Assembly: GCF_003790525.1 (NCBI RefSeq)
Contig: NZ_CP033635.1
Source of the DNA: Escherichia coli
GTDB taxonomy: Bacteria > Pseudomonadota > Gammaproteobacteria > Enterobacterales > Enterobacteriaceae
Length of the DNA: 64,000 nt
Strand: one strand, 5' to 3'
How positions within the stretch are numbered: position 1 is the stretch's first letter; each line of letters starts with the position of its first letter. The notes below the pieces were generated by a model. It made no database searches, was not told the origin of the DNA, and saw only the letters and a program-made list of their open reading frames with translations. The translations under genes were made by a program, and so were the position numbers. Positions 3,906 through 16,014 of this stretch are shown piece by piece.

Positions 3906-3935
3906 GTCGGATGCGGCGTAAACGCCTTATCCGAC
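3906..3935. repeat. REP (repetitive extragenic palindrome) between the convergent rhtB and rhtC
   Basis: Palindromic tcggatgcggcgtaaacgccttatccga read directly in the intergenic spacer. Confidence 0.6.
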
Positions 3936-3958
3936 TTACTCTGATGACGCGTCTGGCA

Positions 3959-4579
3959 TCAACGCGAAATAATCAAATGAATGCCAAATCCGGCAAATAA
4001 CGCCCCGGCAAAACCATCAATCCACTTCGCCAGACGTTGATAACCACGGCGCATTTGCGGCAGGGCAAACAGGCTGGCAACGACGGTAAACCACGCCAGT
4101 GTTTCGATAATAATCAACGCGAAAATGCCCCAGCGCTCAGTGGTGCCGACGTTATCGCCGACAAACAGCGAGAATACCGAACCAAAGTAGATAATCGCTT
4201 TCGGATTGGCGAGATTGGTCAGTAAGCCTTTCAGGAAACTGCGCCCGCTTTTTGCCAGCTCAACCTGTGGTGCAGGCGCAGAAACCGCCTCTTTTTTCAG
4301 TGCACCGCGTAGCATCTGGTAACCCATCCAGCAGAGATACAGGCCACCGCCCACCATAATCAGCGTATGCAGCCAGGCCATTTTTTCGATAATCAAATGT
4401 AGGCCAAGCAACGCAATCCCAGCCCAAACCATTACGCCGCAGGTAATGCCCAGCACGCCCATCATCGCTTCTTTACGGGAACGACTGACAGCGGTCTGAG
4501 AGACAAAAAAGAAATCGGGACCGGGGCTCATAAGCGCCACAATGTGCACCATGGCGACGGTGAGGAATAACATCAACAT
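3959..4579 (-). CDS. rhtC: LysE/RhtB-family threonine exporter
   Basis: 206-aa membrane protein MLMLFLTVAMVHIVALMSPGPDFFF; paralogous to rhtB. Confidence 0.9.
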   Translation of the reverse strand: MLMLFLTVAMVHIVALMSPGPDFFFVSQTAVSRSRKEAMMGVLGITCGVMVWAGIALLGLHLIIEKMAWLHTLIMVGGGLYLCWMGYQMLRGALKKEAVSAPAPQVELAKSGRSFLKGLLTNLANPKAIIYFGSVFSLFVGDNVGTTERWGIFALIIIETLAWFTVVASLFALPQMRRGYQRLAKWIDGFAGALFAGFGIHLIISR

Positions 4580-4642
4580 ACATTAGACTCGCGGGGGAAA
4601 CGTTTACGGAGTCTTCATCCTGGCACTTTTTTATGCTGCTGA

Positions 4643-6478
4643 CTACTCTTCGTCGTCACCATCGACATGCGCGCGGATAAGCGCCATAAACGGTTTACCA
4701 AAGCGTTCCAGCTTGCGCATCCCAACGCCGTTAACGCTGAGCATTTCGCTGGCGGTGATCGGCATCTGTTCAGCCATCTCAATCAAGGTTGCGTCGTTAA
4801 ACACCACGTACGGCGGGACATTGCTTTCATCGGCAATCGATTTACGCAGTTTGCGTAATTTGGCGAACAGTTTGCGATCATAGTTGCCGCCGAAGGATTT
4901 CTGCATCGCTTTCGGTTTGAGCGCCACGATACGCGGCACGGCAAGTTGCAAAGAGGATTCGCCGCGCAGCACCGGACGCGCAGCCTCTGTCAGTTGTAGG
5001 GCAGAATGCTGGGCAATATTTTGCGTCACCAGGCCGAGGTGAATCAGCTGGCGGATCACGCTCACCCAATGTTCATGGCTTTTATCACGGCCCATGCCAT
5101 AGACTTTCAGTTTGTCATGACCATAGTCGCGGATACGCTGATTATTAGCACCGCGAATAACTTCCACCACATAGCCCATCCCAAACCGCTGATTCACACG
5201 ACCAATGGTGGAAAGGGCAATCTGAGCATCGGTTGAACCATCGTATTGTTTCGGCGGATCGAGGCAGATATCGCAGTTCCCGCACGGCTCCTGCCGCCCT
5301 TCGCCAAAGTAGTTCAGCAGCACCAGACGACGGCAAGTTTGCGCTTCGGCAAACGCGCCCATCGCATTGAGTTTATGGCGCTCGATATCCTGCAATTGCC
5401 CCTGCGGCTTCTCTTCCAGACAACGGCGTAGCCACGCCATATCGGCCGGATCGTAAAACAGCATCGCTTCCGCGGGCAGGCCATCACGCCCGGCGCGACC
5501 GGTTTCCTGATAATAGGATTCGATATTGCGCGGAATATCAAAGTGGACCACGAAGCGGACGTTAGGCTTGTTGATGCCCATGCCAAACGCCACGGTCGCC
5601 ACCACAATTTGCAGGTCATCGCGCTGAAATTTTTCCTGCACGTCGGCGCGGACATTATTTTCCAGCCCGGCATGATAGGCCGCCGCGCTAATACCCTTGC
5701 TTTGCAGGCGCGCAGCGGTGTCTTCTACTTTCGCCCGGCTGTTGCAGTAGATAATGCCGGACTTACCGCGCTGTTCCTGCACGTAGCGCATCAACTGATC
5801 GAGCGGTTTGAACTTCTCCATCAGCATGTAGCGAATATTCGGACGATCAAAACTGCTGATTTGAATCAGCGGATCGTTCAGCCCCAGCAGGCGCACGATA
5901 TCCTGGCGCGTGGTGTCATCGGCTGTGGCAGTCAGCGCCATAAACGGCAGCGTCGGAAAACGCTGACGCAGCTGACCGAGGGCAGCGTATTCCGGGCGGA
6001 AATCGTGACCCCATTGGGAGATACAGTGCGCTTCATCAACGGCTAATAACACCGGATTCCAGTGCGCCAGATGCTCAAGAAAGTTATCCAGCATCAGGCG
6101 TTCCGGCGCGATATAAAGCAGGCGGATTTGCCCGGTGCGACAGCCTGTCATCACTTCAAGTTGCTGCTCGCGGGTTTGCGTCGAGTTAAGGCACACCGCC
6201 GCCACGCCGTTGGCTTGCAGTTGATCCACCTGATCTTTCATCAACGAAATCAGCGGTGAAACAACCACGGTAAGGCCGTTTAGCAATAAGGCAGGGATTT
6301 GATAGCAAAGGGATTTTCCGCCACCAGTGGGCATGACAACGAGGCAATCGCGGCCGGAAAGCACAGTGTCGATAATTTCTTCCTGGCCGGGGCGAAACTG
6401 TTGGTAGCCAAAGGTTTCTTGTAAAACCTGTTTAGCCCCGGACTCCAGATTCAACACTTCCGCCTGCGCCACATTCAC
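4643..6478 (-). CDS. recQ: ATP-dependent DNA helicase RecQ
   Basis: 611-aa ORF with DEAH box ([15 protein letters not shown]), Zn-binding cysteines and an HRDC-type C-terminus; the true start may be the GTG two codons in (6472). Confidence 0.93.
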
Positions 6479-6490
6479 CCCGATTGCCTG

Positions 6491-6520
6491 AAATAAAAAC
6501 AGGCGCTATTTTCAGCGCCT
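6491..6520 (-). terminator. Rho-independent terminator downstream of pldA
   Basis: On the minus strand: hairpin aggcgct-gaaaat-agcgcct followed by GTTTTTATTT. Confidence 0.55.
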
Positions 6521-6596
6521 GCGCGAGAAACTGCAATGCTTTTAGTCTCTGAGAGGGTAATCCTGGATGCTGGATTCCAGATTTGCCAACCATTCA

Positions 6597-7466
6597 TCAA
6601 AACAGGTCGTTTAGCATAACTCCCACACCAACGCGGGTCTGGTTGAAGTTATAGTCGATGAGCGATTCGCCATAGCCGCTGTAAACCTGAGTATAAAGGC
6701 GCACATGTTTGGTGATCGGGTAACTTAAGCCTAACTCCGCGCCGCCGTAGCCCGTGTTCCAGTTGTACTGTCCTTTCGCACTCAACACCGCATCACCGAG
6801 GTGATAGCCGATTTTAAGCTGGTAGTAACCCATATATTTGGTGATATCCGGGTTATCGTCAGTATTACCCACCACATACCACGGCTTCACCTCTACCAGC
6901 CAGTTACCGTTTTCTGCCATCAGGCGTGTATAAAGGCGGTTCCAGCTGCGGGAGGTCGGGTCTGAACGCCCGTTAGAGTCGTGGTTATAACCCATCTCCA
7001 CATCGCGCAGCGTCCAACCTGCAAAACGGTAATCGGTGGCAAAACCGAGGAACAATTGCGGTTCGTAGTTGGTTTCACGAAACGGTGAAGACTCTTCGCT
7101 ATTGGACAGTTGCCACCAGGATTTTTGCGTGTAAGACGCACCCAATACCGAGTTCGGGCCTAAAATCCCACGCCACAGCGGAAATGCCAGGCTCAACTGA
7201 AACTTTACTTCATCCTTACGCGCATTTTCCGCCCAGTCGTAACTGGCAATCGCTTCTTTATTCAGATCGCTGGTTTGGGTGTAGATGATGTAGTTGGTGT
7301 CATAAGGATAAAGGGTGAACGGATTGTCATGCTCCTGCAGCATATTGGCGATAATACTGCCACGCACCGCTGGCGCGTCATGCACCTCTTTCACCGTTGC
7401 CTCTTGTGCATATACTGCCATAGGCAACATAAACACCGGCAACAACCAGCCCTGCAGAGTCCGCAT
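6597..7466 (-). CDS. pldA: Outer membrane phospholipase A
   Basis: 289-aa ORF with signal peptide MRTLQGWLLPVFMLPMAVYA and a beta-barrel ending in F. Confidence 0.92.
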   Translation of the reverse strand: MRTLQGWLLPVFMLPMAVYAQEATVKEVHDAPAVRGSIIANMLQEHDNPFTLYPYDTNYIIYTQTSDLNKEAIASYDWAENARKDEVKFQLSLAFPLWRGILGPNSVLGASYTQKSWWQLSNSEESSPFRETNYEPQLFLGFATDYRFAGWTLRDVEMGYNHDSNGRSDPTSRSWNRLYTRLMAENGNWLVEVKPWYVVGNTDDNPDITKYMGYYQLKIGYHLGDAVLSAKGQYNWNTGYGGAELGLSYPITKHVRLYTQVYSGYGESLIDYNFNQTRVGVGVMLNDLF

Positions 7467-9349: not shown

Positions 9350-10198
9350 ATGAACAACATATTAGGCTCATCAATTAATATGCCCTGTACACTTTTCGAA
9401 ACTATTACTTTATTCGATGATTTTTCTGCTGATGATATGCAGTATGGGGATATGGAAGAACAAGATTTTCTCTCACTCGGCTTAAGCGACATCTCTGCAA
9501 AAGTTGATCCTTACCGCCTCATTAAATACCATTTTCCTGGGCCGAATTCTACTTATGGTGCTTTTAGTGTTCCAACTTCTGGAACAAAAATATCACAAAG
9601 TGAATGTATTGATATTTTATTTGCAGAAATGAAAGATCTGGCAAAAATGTTTTCCTTTTTTGGACAATACAAAACACTCATCCAGGATCTGATTGATCAT
9701 TTTAGATATGGAAATGGCAACAGTTTCCATAGCCAGGAATTGAACTTATCTTTTCATGAACGAATAAACAAATATGATTATAATAGCCCAATACGTGTAA
9801 TCAAAGAATGTATCGAAAATGATATTTCTTCAACACCTACGATAGGATACCGGCCTCTTCTCCTACAAAAGATTAAGACCGAATTACTTTCATCAAGACT
9901 AAATAAATTCAATGATTTTAAAGATAATTTTAATGGCATGGGAATCAGCATTCATGATATCTCAGCTCAAAAAATATCTCTTTTAAATTTTCAAAAATAT
10001 CCTATGGGCTGGAGCGCTACCATTCATTTCATAGCACAAGACCACTTTGGTTTGGATGTGACTGATATAAAAAACAAGATTTACAACAAGTATAGATTTT
10101 TTCGCATATGGTTCTTTTTACAACGGCATAAAGACTTTGCTTTCAAACCTTTTTTCACCAATTTTAACACTATCGAAAGAATCGAAAATTATCTATGA
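9350..10198 (+). CDS. Hypothetical soluble protein (282 aa), first gene of the AT-rich cassette
   Basis: Long ORF in a visibly AT-rich region, preceded by Shine-Dalgarno aaggag (9337..9342) about 8 nt before the ATG; no signal peptide or TM segment; codons strongly A/T-biased. Family unknown (tentative recollection: DUF3289-like length and composition). Confidence 0.75.
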   Translation: MNNILGSSINMPCTLFETITLFDDFSADDMQYGDMEEQDFLSLGLSDISAKVDPYRLIKYHFPGPNSTYGAFSVPTSGTKISQSECIDILFAEMKDLAKMFSFFGQYKTLIQDLIDHFRYGNGNSFHSQELNLSFHERINKYDYNSPIRVIKECIENDISSTPTIGYRPLLLQKIKTELLSSRLNKFNDFKDNFNGMGISIHDISAQKISLLNFQKYPMGWSATIHFIAQDHFGLDVTDIKNKIYNKYRFFRIWFFLQRHKDFAFKPFFTNFNTIERIENYL

Positions 10199-10692
10199 AA
10201 AGAAAACTCCAGAAAATTATATTATATTTATTTCTTCTATGCTGCATCTATAATTTATGGACATTGCGTCCTGTACAGATTTTGTATACATACTCTGATG
10301 CTGGCAATTCAGTCTTTCTGGTCGTTGATCATCTGCCATGGACTGACAGCGATAAAATAAATTGGTATCTGAAGCATCAGAATGAAATTAAAAATCAACA
10401 CCCCCTACCAGAAGGTAGTTGGCATACCTGGTATGTTATTGATATCGGTAATGGCTTCACTGACTATAAAAAATATATCGAAGGGCCGTATGAAGATCTC
10501 TACTGTTTCCCGACGATTAAGAGCAATGATAATTGCATCGTAAAAAACTATTTAATGGTTATTAATGAATATCCTTACCGTAATACTCATTTTTTTATTG
10601 CTGATAACAATGAGTATCAACTAACCCAGGAAAATAAGATAGAGCGAGTGTTCAACCCGCATGACTTTGAAAAAGACAATTTTCAGCAATAA
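10195..10692 (+). CDS. Hypothetical small membrane-anchored protein (165 aa), second gene of the AT-rich cassette
   Basis: Start overlaps the upstream stop in ATGA (10195..10198); N-terminus MKRKLQK followed by a ~17-residue hydrophobic segment IILYLFLLCCIYNLWTL, then a hydrophilic domain. Family unknown (tentative recollection: DUF943-like). Confidence 0.7.
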   Translation: MKRKLQKIILYLFLLCCIYNLWTLRPVQILYTYSDAGNSVFLVVDHLPWTDSDKINWYLKHQNEIKNQHPLPEGSWHTWYVIDIGNGFTDYKKYIEGPYEDLYCFPTIKSNDNCIVKNYLMVINEYPYRNTHFFIADNNEYQLTQENKIERVFNPHDFEKDNFQQ

Positions 10693-12047: not shown

Positions 12048-12812
12048 ATGGCGCATCGGCTACTCATTGGTAAAGGAATGATCACCTTGAATCTCAAACG
12101 GATTTTTCTCACCTTCACCTTACTTCCCTTGTTTGCTGTTGCCGCTGATGATTGCGCACTCTCAGATCCGACGCTGACCGTACAGGCGTATACCGTTAAT
12201 CCTCAAACAGAGCGGGTGAAAATGTACTGGCAAAAAGCCAATGGCGAAGCGTGGGGAACGTTACATGCTCTGCTGGCGGATATGAATAGTCAGGGTCAGG
12301 TGCAGATGGCGATGAACGGCGGCATCTATGATGAAAGCTATGCGCCGCTCGGTTTGTACATCGAAAACGGTCAGCAGAAGGTGGCGTTAAATCTCGCTTC
12401 AGGTGAAGGGAATTTCTTTATTCGTCCTGGCGGCGTGTTTTATGTCGCGGGAGATAAAGTCGGCATCGTTCGTCTGGATGCCTTTAAAACCAGTAAAGAG
12501 ATTCAGTTTGCAGTGCAGTCAGGGCCAATGTTATTAGAAAACGGCGTAATTAATCCACGCATTCACCCGAATGTTGCCTCGCGTAAAATTCGTAACGGTG
12601 TAGGGATTAATAAACAAGGGAACGCCGTGTTTTTGTTGAGCCAGCAGGCGACAAATTTTTATGATTTTGCCTGCTATGCCAAAGCGAAACTGAACGTTGA
12701 GCAGCTGCTTTATCTTGATGGCACAATTTCACATATGTATATGAAAGGCTGGGCAATCCCGTGGCAACACTATCCTTTTGTTACCATGATTTCCGTCGAG
12801 TGGAAAGGTTAA
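12048..12812 (+). CDS. yigE: DUF2233-family exported protein YigE
   Basis: 254-aa ORF with a signal-peptide-like N-terminus; AGGA about 7 nt upstream of the ATG; divergent from corA. Confidence 0.8.
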   Translation: MAHRLLIGKGMITLNLKRIFLTFTLLPLFAVAADDCALSDPTLTVQAYTVNPQTERVKMYWQKANGEAWGTLHALLADMNSQGQVQMAMNGGIYDESYAPLGLYIENGQQKVALNLASGEGNFFIRPGGVFYVAGDKVGIVRLDAFKTSKEIQFAVQSGPMLLENGVINPRIHPNVASRKIRNGVGINKQGNAVFLLSQQATNFYDFACYAKAKLNVEQLLYLDGTISHMYMKGWAIPWQHYPFVTMISVEWKG

Positions 12813-12894
12813 GCATTGTACACTCGAGGAGGCCAGACAAACTGGGACTGGCTACACAGCTGGAAAATCATCAGATAAATGAAGGGAAACAAAA

Positions 12895-13797
12895 ATGAAA
12901 AAAAGGCTCGCAACGTTATTTTTATTAACGTGTCTGGGATCATCATCCGCCTATGCGGATAACGCTTTGATTTTACAAACTGATTTTAGCCTGAAAGATG
13001 GTGCCGTCTCGGCGATGAAAGGGGTCGCATTCGGCGTTGACCATAATCTTAAAATCTTTGATTTAACACACGAAATTCCACCGTATAACATCTGGGAAGG
13101 CGCTTATCGCCTGTATCAGACTGCCAGTTACTGGCCGCAAGGTTCGGTGTTTGTTAGCGTGGTCGATCCGGGCGTAGGCACTGACCGTAAATCGGTAGTG
13201 CTGAAAACCAAAAACGGTCAATACTTCGTTTCACCAGATAACGGTACGCTCACTTTGGTGGCACAAACTCTGGGTATTGATAGCGTCCGAGAAATCGACG
13301 AAAAAGCTAACCGCCTGAAAGGTTCTGAAAAGTCATATACCTTCCACGGTCGTGACGTGTATGCCTACACCGGTGCGCGTCTGGCTTCCGGGGCGATTAC
13401 GTTCGAACAGGTGGGGCCAGAGCTTCCTGCAAAAGTTGTCGAACTTTCTTATCAGAAAGCAAAAGCAACAAAAGGTGAAGTGAAGGGCAATATCCCGATT
13501 CTCGATATTCAGTACGGCAACGTCTGGAGCAATATCAGCGACGAGTTGCTGAATCAGGCAGGAATCAAACTCAACGACACGTTGTGTGTGACCATTTCCG
13601 AAGGTTCCCAGCAAAAATACGCAGGGAAAATGCCATATGTCGCAAGCTTCGGCGATGTGCCGGAAGGCCAGCCGATGGTGTATCTGAACAGCTTATTGAA
13701 TGTTTCCGTGGCGCTGAATATGGATAATTTTGCGCAGAAACATCAGGTTGCGTCTGGTGCTGACTGGAATATTGATGTGAAGAAGTGCGCTAAGTAA
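12895..13797 (+). CDS. SAM hydroxide adenosyltransferase (DUF62; fluorinase/chlorinase/SAM-hydrolase) family protein with N-terminal signal peptide
   Basis: 300-aa ORF with signal peptide MKKRLATLFLLTCLGSSSAYA and family-type motifs LILQTDFSLKDGAVSAMKGV, VFVSVVDPGVGT, YFVSPDNGTLT and DIQYGNVWSNI. Confidence 0.8.
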   Translation: MKKRLATLFLLTCLGSSSAYADNALILQTDFSLKDGAVSAMKGVAFGVDHNLKIFDLTHEIPPYNIWEGAYRLYQTASYWPQGSVFVSVVDPGVGTDRKSVVLKTKNGQYFVSPDNGTLTLVAQTLGIDSVREIDEKANRLKGSEKSYTFHGRDVYAYTGARLASGAITFEQVGPELPAKVVELSYQKAKATKGEVKGNIPILDIQYGNVWSNISDELLNQAGIKLNDTLCVTISEGSQQKYAGKMPYVASFGDVPEGQPMVYLNSLLNVSVALNMDNFAQKHQVASGADWNIDVKKCAK

Positions 13798-13805
13798 GGT
13801 GCTGA

Positions 13806-13838
13806 TGCCGAATGCGGTGTGGCGCACCGCATCCTGCA
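13806..13838. repeat. REP-like palindrome between the convergent DUF62 gene and uvrD
   Basis: tgccgaatgcggtgtggcgcaccgcatcctgca, an imperfect inverted repeat of REP type. Confidence 0.4.
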
Positions 13839-13851
13839 ACGGAGTTGTAAA

Positions 13852-16014
13852 TTACACCGTCTCCAGTCGGGCATAAGCCGCCACCAGCCATTTAATACCC
13901 TGGCCCTGGAATGCCACCTGCAAACGGCTATGCTCGCCGCTGCCTTCCATATTGACGATGGTGCCTTCACCAAACTTAGCGTGGCGTACGCGCTGGCCGA
14001 GCTTGTAGCCGCTGTCGTTCTCGACCATCGGCGTACCCATCCGTTGATGGCTGACCGGGCGGCTTACCGTAGCGCGCAGGCGCACCTCTTCCACACACTC
14101 TTCCGGCAACTCACCGATAAAGCGCGACGGGCGATGGTAAACCTCTTTGCCATACAGACGGCGAGTTTCCGCGTAGGTCAGCGTCAGTTTCTGCATCGCG
14201 CGGGTTACGCCAACGTAGGCCAGACGGCGTTCTTCTTCCAGACGTCCGCCTTCATCCAGCGACATCTGGCTTGGGAACATGCCCTCTTCCATACCAACGA
14301 TAAACACCTGCGGGAACTCCAGGCCTTTCGCCGAGTGTAGCGTCATCAACTGCACCGCGTCCTGCCAGGTATCCGCCTGCCCCTCGCCCGCTTCCAGCGC
14401 CGCATGGGAGAGGAATGCCTGCAGCGGCATTAAATCTTCGTCTTCTTCGTTGTAGCTGAACTGGCGCGTTGCCGTCACCAGTTCCTCCAGGTTTTCGATA
14501 CGCGTCTGACCTTTTTCGCCCTTCTCCTGCTCGTACATGGTGCGCAAGCCGGAGTCTTTAATTACCCGGTCAGTCTGTACATGCAGCGGCATATCGGCAG
14601 TTTCCTGCGCTAAGGCGTCGATCAGCTCCATAAACCGCTGTAAGGCACTGGCAGCACGTCCGGCGAGGGCTTTTTCCTGCAACAGTTCACGACATGCCTG
14701 CCAGAGTGTTAACTGGCGATCACGCGATGTCTGACGTACCACGTCCAGCGTCCGGTCACCAATACCCCGCGTTGGTGTATTCACCACGCGCTCAAAGGCC
14801 GCGTCGTCATTACGGTTGGCAATCAGGCGCAGATACGAGAGCGCATCTTTGATTTCCTGGCGTTCGAAGAATCGCATCCCGCCGTAAATACGGTACGGCA
14901 TACTTGCCTGTAACAGTGCTTCTTCCAGCACACGCGACTGGGCGTTGCTGCGGTAGAGAATGGCGCACTCGGCAAGCGCCCCGCCGTTGTCCTGCCAGGT
15001 TTTGATACGGTTAACCACAAAACGCGCTTCATCGAGTTCGTTAAAAGCGCAATAGAGGGAAATAGGCTCACCATCCGCGCCATCGGTCCACAGTTTTTTA
15101 CCCAAACGCCCGTTGTTGTTTTCAATCAGGGCGTTCGCGGCGCTCAGAATATTGCTGGTAGAGCGGTAGTTCTGCTCCAGACGGATAGTTTCAGCACCGG
15201 GGAAATCATTGAGGAAACGCTGAATATTCTCCACCTGCGCTCCGCGCCAGCCGTAGATTGACTGATCGTCATCGCCAACGATCATCACTTTGCCGGTATC
15301 GCCCGCCAGCAGGCGGATCCACGCATACTGAATGTTGTTGGTATCCTGGAATTCGTCCACCAGGATATTGGTAAACCGTTCGCGATAGTGCTGAAGGATA
15401 TGCGGCTTGTTAAGCCACAACTCGTGAGCACGTAGCAGCAGCTCGGCGAAGTCCACCAGCCCCGCGCGGTCACACGCTTCCTGATACGCCTGATACACCT
15501 TCTGCCAGGTCTGCTCCACCGGATTACCGTAGCTTTGAATATGATGTGGACGCAGGCCTTCATCTTTCTGGCTGTTGATGTACCACATTGCCTGGCGCGG
15601 CGGCCACTGCTTCTCGTCGAGGTTCATCGCCTTGATTAGGCGTTTGAGCAGGCGTAGCTGGTCCTCGCTGTCGAGGATCTGAAAATCCTGCGGCAGATTG
15701 GCGTCCATATGGTGCGCACGCAGCAGACGGTGCGCCAGCCCGTGGAAGGTGCCGACCCACATGCCGCCCTGGCTGGTGCCCATCAGCTGCCCGATACGAT
15801 GACGCATCTCCGCCGCCGCTTTGTTGGTAAACGTTACCGCCATAATCGAGTATGGCGAGCAGTTTTCCACGCTCATCAGCCAGGCGATACGATGCACCAG
15901 TACGCGCGTCTTACCACTGCCCGCGCCCGCCAGCACCAGAAGGTTGCTGCGTGGCGCGGCCACCGCTTCGCGCTGTTTGTCATTAAGGCTGTCGAGCAGG
16001 TAAGAAACGTCCAT
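13852..16014 (-). CDS. uvrD: DNA helicase II UvrD
   Basis: ORF 13852..16200 trimmed to MDVSYLLDSLNDKQREAVAAP (720 aa); Walker [10 protein letters not shown]. Confidence 0.93.
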   Translation of the reverse strand: MDVSYLLDSLNDKQREAVAAPRSNLLVLAGAGSGKTRVLVHRIAWLMSVENCSPYSIMAVTFTNKAAAEMRHRIGQLMGTSQGGMWVGTFHGLAHRLLRAHHMDANLPQDFQILDSEDQLRLLKRLIKAMNLDEKQWPPRQAMWYINSQKDEGLRPHHIQSYGNPVEQTWQKVYQAYQEACDRAGLVDFAELLLRAHELWLNKPHILQHYRERFTNILVDEFQDTNNIQYAWIRLLAGDTGKVMIVGDDDQSIYGWRGAQVENIQRFLNDFPGAETIRLEQNYRSTSNILSAANALIENNNGRLGKKLWTDGADGEPISLYCAFNELDEARFVVNRIKTWQDNGGALAECAILYRSNAQSRVLEEALLQASMPYRIYGGMRFFERQEIKDALSYLRLIANRNDDAAFERVVNTPTRGIGDRTLDVVRQTSRDRQLTLWQACRELLQEKALAGRAASALQRFMELIDALAQETADMPLHVQTDRVIKDSGLRTMYEQEKGEKGQTRIENLEELVTATRQFSYNEEDEDLMPLQAFLSHAALEAGEGQADTWQDAVQLMTLHSAKGLEFPQVFIVGMEEGMFPSQMSLDEGGRLEEERRLAYVGVTRAMQKLTLTYAETRRLYGKEVYHRPSRFIGELPEECVEEVRLRATVSRPVSHQRMGTPMVENDSGYKLGQRVRHAKFGEGTIVNMEGSGEHSRLQVAFQGQGIKWLVAAYARLETV

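Follow-up and report, generated by a model that had tools for sequence, protein, structure and literature searches.

What might a member of the S-adenosylmethionine (SAM)-cleaving DUF62 family do when it carries an export leader? The question is raised by a 300-amino-acid (aa) open reading frame (ORF) between yigE and uvrD in a 64,000-nucleotide stretch of Escherichia coli DNA (contig NZ_CP033635.1, assembly GCF_003790525.1), referred to here as the window. The ORF is present exactly as an earlier sequence-only reading had described it, and its product already bears the RefSeq name "SAM hydrolase/SAM-dependent halogenase family protein"; beyond this family-level annotation, the interest lies in the predicted exported branch of the family that the protein represents and in a gene common to E. 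coli and Helicobacter pylori. Our preferred interpretation is that the gene encodes a periplasmic DUF62 member hydrolyzing exogenous SAM to adenosine and methionine, and that it is an old Escherichia resident related to H. pylori HP0709 by transfer. Taken as a whole, we hold this interpretation to be evenly poised between right and wrong, and its parts differ in strength as set out below.

A DUF62 fold with a hydrolase-type active site

The family motifs quoted in the sequence-only reading were all found in the translation, and a profile search recovered both Pfam domains of the family, SAM_HAT_N and SAM_HAT_C (Table 1). The closest sequence match in the PDB was the Thermotoga maritima protein 2zbu (E = 1.3e-43), followed by the chlorinases ClA1 and SalL and by PH0463 and MJ1651. 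An AlphaFold (AF2) model generated from a 48-sequence alignment (mean predicted local distance difference test score [pLDDT], 94) agreed with the assignment, having two domains, an alpha/beta/alpha N-domain plus a beta C-domain, and its target-normalized Foldseek template modeling (TM) scores were 0.92 to 2zbu, 0.90 to SalL, 0.87 to 0.88 to PH0463, and 0.82 to 0.85 to the fluorinase. We regard membership in the DUF62/SAM hydroxide adenosyltransferase family as practically certain.

The substrate-contact motifs of the family are Asp16, PxNG, and IDxxFGN/Asn215 (PMC4859513), and all three are kept, as Asp30 (equivalent to Asp16), P114-D115-N116-G117, and L203-D204-I205-Q206-Y207-G208-N209 (equivalent to IDxxFGN/Asn215). 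Hydrolases are further marked by an Asp-Arg-His triad that activates water (D68-R75-H127 in PH0463), which the halogenases lack, with Tyr70/Gly131 in SalL and Thr80/Ser158 in FlA standing in its place (PMC4859513, PMC10491745). The comparison with FlA, SalL, and the hydrolases that had been suggested for this protein revealed that the hydrolase-type triad is the one present: Asp91, Arg98, and His151 align with it, whereas SalL has Tyr, Thr, and Tyr in those columns, its Tyr70 corresponding to Asp91. To place these residues in the family, 160 members were aligned, and 96 leader-bearing sequences were compared with 23 leaderless, triad-bearing ones. The leaderless group showed at least 85% conservation at 39 positions, and at each of these the leader-bearing group had the identical residue, with zero switched; these unchanged positions include the triad plus the adenosine and ribose contacts. 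The triad was retained in 99 to 114 of 120 leader-bearing relatives, and D35, A37, K42, S147, and N209 were conserved in the leader-bearing group only.

Because the Asp91-Arg98-His151 triad is kept, we read the active site as probably that of a hydrolase rather than a halogenase. The names "adenosyl-chloride synthase" and "salL," which were derived automatically from UniProt (quoted in PMC6090961 and PMC6212823), imply instead a SAM-dependent chlorinase or fluorinase, and there is real kinship behind them, since the protein has about 30% identity and a TM score of 0.90 to SalL and has the superfamily, the fold, and bimolecular nucleophilic substitution (SN2) chemistry at C5′ of SAM in common with SalL and FlA. 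Nevertheless, it possesses the triad reported absent from halogenases (PMC10491745), it scored 83.9 bits against a cutoff of 400 for the fluorinase equivalog TIGR04507, and no halometabolite gene cluster was found among its annotated neighbors. The triad together with the model scores led us to reject the halogenase assignment, which we rate as extremely improbable.

Much is in common with the SAM hydroxide adenosyltransferases (PH0463, MJ1651, T. maritima 2zbu, Salinispora StDUF62, and the archaeal (R)-SAM hydrolases), namely both Pfam domains, the two-domain fold (TM, 0.87 to 0.93), the triad, the PDNG and D-x-x-(F/Y)-G-N motifs, and the ribose-binding Asp30. The E. coli protein differs from them in its modest identity (30 to 34%), in an extra conserved cysteine pair, and in a Sec-type leader, since the characterized and crystallized hydrolases are leaderless and cytoplasmic.

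A Sec-type leader typical of a broad, predicted exported branch

The sequence-only reading had noted a Sec signal peptide with an AxA site, and this feature was evident upon closer inspection. The N terminus, MKK(R)LATLFLLTCLGSSSAYA followed by DN after the predicted cleavage point, has a positive n-region, a 10-residue hydrophobic core (mean Kyte-Doolittle hydropathy, 2.47), and A-Y-A at −3/−1, and can be segmented into MKKR (n), LATLFLLTCL (h), and GSSSAYA (c), with D as the next residue; all signal-peptide calls in this work were heuristic, being based on such sequence features. Neither a canonical lipobox nor a twin-arginine motif was present in the leader. A lipoprotein was considered and ruled out by the Thr at −1 in L-L-T-C and by the Cys missing from Aeromonas leaders. 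Since the next Met after the start is residue 41, beyond the essential Asp30, a leaderless isoform is impossible. In the AF2 model, residues 1 to 20 had pLDDT values of 53 to 58 and lay outside the folded domain, and between E. coli and H. pylori the nonsynonymous divergence (Ka) was 0.26 in the fast-evolving leader versus 0.039 in the constrained mature part.

The leader is shared widely. Among 67 usable relatives from species-representative genomes (55 to 98% identity), 65 to 67 had a hydrophobic leader directly ahead of the conserved ALV(L/F)QTDFG start, and leader-bearing taxa include Aeromonas, Edwardsiella, Pasteurellaceae, Thorsellia, Neisseriales, Chitinophagaceae, Verrucomicrobia, Synergistota, Tissierellia, Fusobacteria, and Thermotogota. 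Within the nearest 150 clusters at 50% identity, which furnished 83 complete representatives, at least 46 were leader-bearing, including 9 with a lipobox, and 30 were leaderless. The leader had been called unusual for the family, which holds against the characterized members but not across these relatives, where it is typical: it is a property of a large, phylogenetically broad, predicted exported branch of DUF62 that was previously unstudied. In two Fervidobacterium metagenome-assembled genomes (MAGs; L075, positions 4968 to 6887, and L080, positions 4953 to 6875), a protein of about 640 aa begins with the leader-bearing DUF62 domain and continues into a C-terminal extension of about 340 residues.

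A cysteine pair accompanies the leader in part of this branch. Among leader-bearing relatives, both Cys231 and Cys298 were found in 29 proteins, one of them in 1, and neither in 90, and the pair was limited to a proteobacterial subclade except for one MAG labeled Desulfobacterales (L040). This co-occurrence fits a periplasmic disulfide between the two residues.

Taken together, these features suggest that the protein is very probably exported. The contrary possibility is that the N terminus is not a cleaved signal peptide and that the protein is a cytoplasmic or inner-membrane-anchored (R)-SAM hydrolase. In its favor, the members characterized and crystallized to date are all cytoplasmic, and the location of this protein is predicted, from heuristic features. 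It is at odds, however, with the classic n/h/c architecture ending in A-x-A, with the position of the leader outside the folded domain at low pLDDT, with the lipobox of some relatives, which is sensible only if they are exported, and with the restriction of the conserved Cys pair to a proteobacterial leader-bearing subclade; we consider it improbable. HP0709 has been listed among the H. pylori outer-membrane-vesicle proteins (PMC8756444).

An old resident of the yigE-uvrD slot

The presence/absence survey proposed for the yigE-uvrD junction was carried out on 5,426 complete E. coli genomes, of which 2,413 (44%) carry the gene and 56% do not. Carriers include BL21(DE3)/E. coli B, O157:H7, ST131, and Nissle 1917. 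The gene was always chromosomal in E. coli and occupied the yigE-uvrD slot in each copy with inspected flanks. K-12, as the sequence-only reading had stated, has no gene there: its yigE-uvrD spacer of 146 bp is made up of repetitive extragenic palindromic (REP) sequence, only the uvrD-side REP is common to both arrangements, and no ORF remnant was found in the spacer. The sampled empty genomes all have one junction of about 1,108 bp.

From its absence in K-12, the gene had been taken for an accessory insertion, and here the polarity proved wrong. The synonymous divergence (Ks) of the DUF62 gene from BL21 was 0.19, compared with 0.09 to 0.16 for its flanks (yigE, uvrD, and yigB), and that from two divergent Escherichia lineages, which are separate GTDB species representatives (L007 and L008) and carry the gene in the same slot, was 0.28, compared with 0.15 to 0.48. 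Synonymous divergence in keeping with that of the flanks, along with a single empty junction, indicates an old resident rather than a recent insertion, one that has diverged in step with its neighbors throughout the separation of these lineages. Thus, the gene is best read as a long-standing occupant of this slot, and the K-12-type state as one old deletion. No close copy was found in species representatives of other Enterobacteriaceae, which still implies that the Escherichia lineage acquired the gene at some earlier time.

Within E. coli, the gene is mosaic, and its frame was intact in all alleles examined except for a single copy in strain HS-02. The latter (L087, positions 3915 to 4772; 80.8% identical) is annotated as frameshifted and has an internal stop; yigF of the same strain also has an internal stop, and an assembly error is therefore possible for this DUF62 copy.

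Plasmid carriage was also considered and rejected. The 99% matches labeled as plasmids were mislabeled 4.9-Mb chromosomes, and the true plasmid matches were leaderless Enterococcus homologues at 47% identity. Neither plasmid nor phage records yielded a vehicle for the gene.

A near-identical gene in Helicobacter pylori

The nearest proteins outside Escherichia/Shigella were those of H. pylori and H. acinonychis, with 90% identity over all 300 residues, and one cluster alone has 2,579 members; the next relatives (Aeromonas and others) were only 66 to 73% identical. The H. pylori gene, HP0709/jhp0648, is uncharacterized and is annotated variously as "acetolactate synthase" or "adenosyl-chloride synthase." Its product matches the E. 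coli protein in leader architecture, triad, and Cys pair, but the context of the gene differs, as it lies between HP0708 and homA/homB, downstream of uvrA-hopE-rsmH. Contamination is excluded, since this locus sits in complete genomes of 1.6 to 1.75 Mb.

At the DNA level, the two genes are 84% identical without gaps (91%, 96%, and 67% at codon positions 1, 2, and 3, respectively), and the homology extends from about 25 bp upstream of the ORF, where CATCAGATAA is common to both, to 7 bp past the stop. The G+C content is 47.4% for the E. coli copy in a 52% background and 42.9% for the H. pylori copy in a 37.6% background. An identity of 84% in DNA and 90% in protein points to transfer between phyla.

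The alleles were then compared for signs of when and in which direction the gene had moved. Judged against outgroups, 14 derived residues are common to Escherichia and Helicobacter, and 1 is common to all Escherichia but not to Helicobacter. A four-residue patch (Q124, T125, D129, and E133) is common to Helicobacter and the SMS-type alleles, and the Helicobacter DNA is roughly equidistant from ten Escherichia alleles (83 to 85% nucleotide identity). The E. coli/H. pylori split appears to coincide with, or to fall slightly within, the root of the Escherichia allele radiation. The donor would have been either an early Escherichia or a third source common to both, the flanks and the alleles being compatible with either.

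Between E. coli and H. pylori, Ka was 0.05 and Ks was 0.9 to 1.2, giving a Ka/Ks ratio of about 0.05; by this measure, the gene is under strong purifying selection. A decaying relic with no current function would account for its absence from more than half of the complete E. coli genomes and for the frameshifted HS-02 copy. Yet it is hard to reconcile with that Ka/Ks ratio, with the frame intact in every other allele examined, or with the 300-aa length kept in E. coli and most H. pylori copies, and we consider it scarcely credible.

Phage carriage was suggested by a record named "Helicobacter phage Pt11444_1" (PQ159899.1) and was rejected, since the record includes a chromosomal uvrA-hopE-rsmH-HP0708-HP0709-homB block beside structural and transposase genes; it represents either a prophage adjoining the HP0709 locus or prophage borders drawn too wide.

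An HP0709 single-nucleotide polymorphism (SNP) was associated with gastric cancer in a genome-wide association study (GWAS) (PMC6090961). It affects nucleotide 145 (Asp/Asn), corresponding to residue 49 in the mature N-domain, which is Asp in the E. coli alleles. The literature that we searched contained no paper on transfer between E. coli and H. pylori or on exported family members, although an earlier mention may exist; the two matches for DUF62 with "signal peptide" that were inspected were prefix matches to DUF6249 and DUF6246.

Proposed function in the periplasm

On the interpretation that we prefer, the leader would be cleaved after Ala21, and the mature enzyme would fold in the periplasm, probably as a trimer, and be tied by the Cys231-Cys298 disulfide. 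SAM released by lysed cells or present in food or host secretions would pass through porins into the periplasm, where SAM, or a very close 5′-sulfonium adenosine, would be hydrolyzed. In this step, the triad would activate water for SN2 attack on C5′ of SAM, as in the characterized members, to yield adenosine and L-methionine, and import of the two products would allow a purine nucleoside and a sulfur amino acid to be scavenged. SAM itself is not known to be imported by E. coli. The periplasmic scavengers UshA, CpdB, AphA, and RNase I offer an analogy, in that an exported hydrolase makes importable products, but their fold and chemistry are unrelated, and they act on phosphoesters rather than on the sulfonium proposed here.

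H. pylori is a methionine auxotroph. It also lacks de novo purine synthesis (PMC13328217), and in biofilms of H. pylori SS1, a gene named "salL, adenosyl-chloride synthase," presumably the HP0709 orthologue, was up 2.87-fold, with the methionine transporter gene metI rising as well (PMC6212823). Purine dependence and the joint rise of salL and metI lend scavenging some appeal in H. pylori.

Several points weigh against this proposal. Free SAM is scarce outside cells. The characterized DUF62 hydrolases are slow, and their physiological role is disputed (PMC12120602). The protein scored far below the cutoffs of the NCBIfam (R)-SAM hydrolase equivalogs NF058624 (131.5 versus 350 bits) and NF053629 (116.9 versus 470 bits), by which substrate equivalence to those enzymes is not established; it is a family member but no equivalog of any characterized enzyme. 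When the ORFs of 84 loci were clustered, no partner was conserved beyond the genus level, and no transporter or salvage gene was consistently linked. The searched literature contained no activity, localization, or phenotype data on this protein or its exported relatives, and the disulfide is a prediction from co-occurrence. With these points in mind, we propose SAM scavenging as the true role only tentatively, leaning slightly toward doubt.

An exported and catalytically competent enzyme may instead have a substrate or purpose other than SAM scavenging, such as another 5′-substituted adenosine, the destruction of the inactive (R,S)-SAM epimer or of SAM-like toxins before entry, or, in H. pylori, the depletion of host SAM by a vesicle-delivered enzyme. 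The missed (R)-SAM hydrolase cutoffs speak for this alternative, as do the five residues conserved in the exported group only (D35, A37, K42, S147, and N209), the questioning of the hydrolysis role even for cytoplasmic DUF62 enzymes (PMC12120602), and the occurrence of HP0709 in vesicles (PMC8756444) and the link of its SNP to gastric cancer (PMC6090961). However, the triad, the adenosine and ribose contacts, and all other positions conserved in the leaderless hydrolases are retained, and the gene neighborhood points to no alternative substrate. We view a different purpose as unlikely, although as the most serious competitor of scavenging.

The same-strand neighbors within 150 bp of exported DUF62 genes are heterogeneous. 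A cytosine permease-like transporter of the NCS1 type lies 49 bp downstream of the gene in a Synergistaceae genome (L058, positions 5958 to 7427), and an exported RNase T2 family protein is encoded 79 bp downstream in Aeromonas sp. RU39B (L021, positions 5964 to 6617); both agree with a scavenging role but are anecdotal. In five Chitinophaga genomes (L039, L041, L047, L076, and L084), a YciA-like acyl-CoA thioesterase gene follows after 0 to 10 bp.

All biochemistry and structures of the DUF62 family come from cytoplasmic enzymes, and a large exported branch does not fit the picture of (R,S)-SAM epimer removal, a proposed housekeeping role that needs the cytoplasmic SAM which the periplasm lacks. 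Such a branch suggests that bacteria use SAM outside the cell as a nutrient or attack it as a target, or else that the substrate is one not yet recognized. The gene lends itself to study, being carried by the four strains or lineages named above and having a natural null in K-12. Its near-identity to HP0709 is a clear instance of gene exchange linking an enterobacterium to an epsilonproteobacterium of the stomach. Without any functional explanation to date, HP0709 has come up in vesicle proteomes, in a GWAS of gastric cancer, and, probably under the name "salL," in a transcriptome of biofilm cells. In its widest form, the proposal would be that leader-bearing DUF62 proteins constitute an unrecognized extracytoplasmic SAM-cleaving class of Gram-negative and Gram-positive phyla, feeding on or depleting outside SAM, with one lineage moved between gut Escherichia and H. 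pylori. This generalization is speculative, and we consider it quite unlikely; if it were true, vesicle-borne HP0709 could lower host SAM and might bear on the association between the HP0709 variant and gastric cancer.

Gene organization and surroundings

The positions of the gene, its domains and key residues, and the adjoining elements are summarized in Table 1.

Table 1. Features of the DUF62 gene and its flanks in the window
Feature	Position	Strand	Remark
DUF62/SAM hydroxide adenosyltransferase-family coding sequence	12895..13797	+	ATG; 300 codons plus stop; residue 4 not as in RefSeq WP_000751627.1
Predicted Sec/signal peptidase I signal peptide, residues 1-21 (MKKRLATLFLLTCLGSSSAYA)	12895..12957	+	Cleavage predicted after A-Y-A
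N-terminal domain PF01887 SAM_HAT_N, residues 26-174	12970..13416	+	Pfam E = 4.9e-53
Asp30 codon, ribose-binding	12982-12984	+	Within SAM_HAT_N
Triad codon Asp91	13165-13167	+	Within SAM_HAT_N
Triad codon Arg98	13186-13188	+	Within SAM_HAT_N
Triad codon His151	13345-13347	+	Within SAM_HAT_N
C-terminal beta domain PF20257 SAM_HAT_C, residues 198-291, with LDIQYGNVWSNI motif	13486..13767	+	Pfam E = 3.9e-18
Cys231 codon, half of putative periplasmic disulfide	13585..13587	+	Co-occurrence with Cys298
Cys298 codon, other half of putative disulfide	13786..13788	+	Co-occurrence with Cys231
yigE, exported phosphodiester glycosidase family	12048..12812	+	Upstream neighbor on the same strand, 82 bp from the DUF62 gene
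Region upstream of the DUF62 gene	12869..12886	+	CATCAGATAA (12869-12878) common with H. pylori HP0709 upstream; AAGGG (12882-12886), ribosome-binding site
REP-like hairpin	13802..13842	.	Between the convergent DUF62 gene and uvrD; common with the K-12 spacer
uvrD	13852..16014	-	Convergent neighbor downstream of the DUF62 gene

Around the DUF62 ORF, the genes are arranged as rarD, two low-G+C genes, corA, ysgD, yigE, the ORF itself, convergent uvrD, yigB, and xerC. The Shine-Dalgarno-like AAGGG lies 8 nucleotides upstream of the DUF62 ATG, and no consensus promoter was found in the interval between yigE and the gene; cotranscription of the two is possible. The remark that the gene is more AT rich than its neighbors is valid with respect to uvrD (57.5% G+C) and corA (53.0%) but not yigE (46.9%), the gene itself having 47.4% and the whole window 52.1%.

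A REP-like palindrome had been pointed out after the gene, and a hairpin is indeed located there, with a 9-bp perfect core (13812-13820/13824-13832) and a folding free energy of −20.6 kcal/mol, which is unexceptional by energy alone (z = −1.63 versus shuffles). By sequence comparison, the REP that K-12 has at this position is its homologue.

Base 12905 of the window is G (codon 4, AGG; Arg4), whereas NC_010498.1 (E. coli SMS-3-5, the strain to which the window was assigned) has C (ACG; Thr4), as do the remaining E. coli, Escherichia, and Helicobacter alleles examined; the top match among the 5,426 genomes was 99.9%.

The rarD-corA interval is polymorphic as well. At 9350 to 10692 of the window, it carries two low-G+C genes (32.9% and 34.1%) coding for YPO3983 family and DUF943 family proteins, the DUF943 gene also being present in BL21(DE3), while K-12 has yigG and yigF in their place. 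Strain HS-02 combines yigG/yigF with its frameshifted DUF62 copy, by which the two polymorphisms are not strictly linked. Finally, yigE, as AT rich as the DUF62 gene, also starts with a hydrophobic leader, and its Ka between strains (0.013 to 0.034) is far above that of corA, uvrD, and yigB (about 0 to 0.007).

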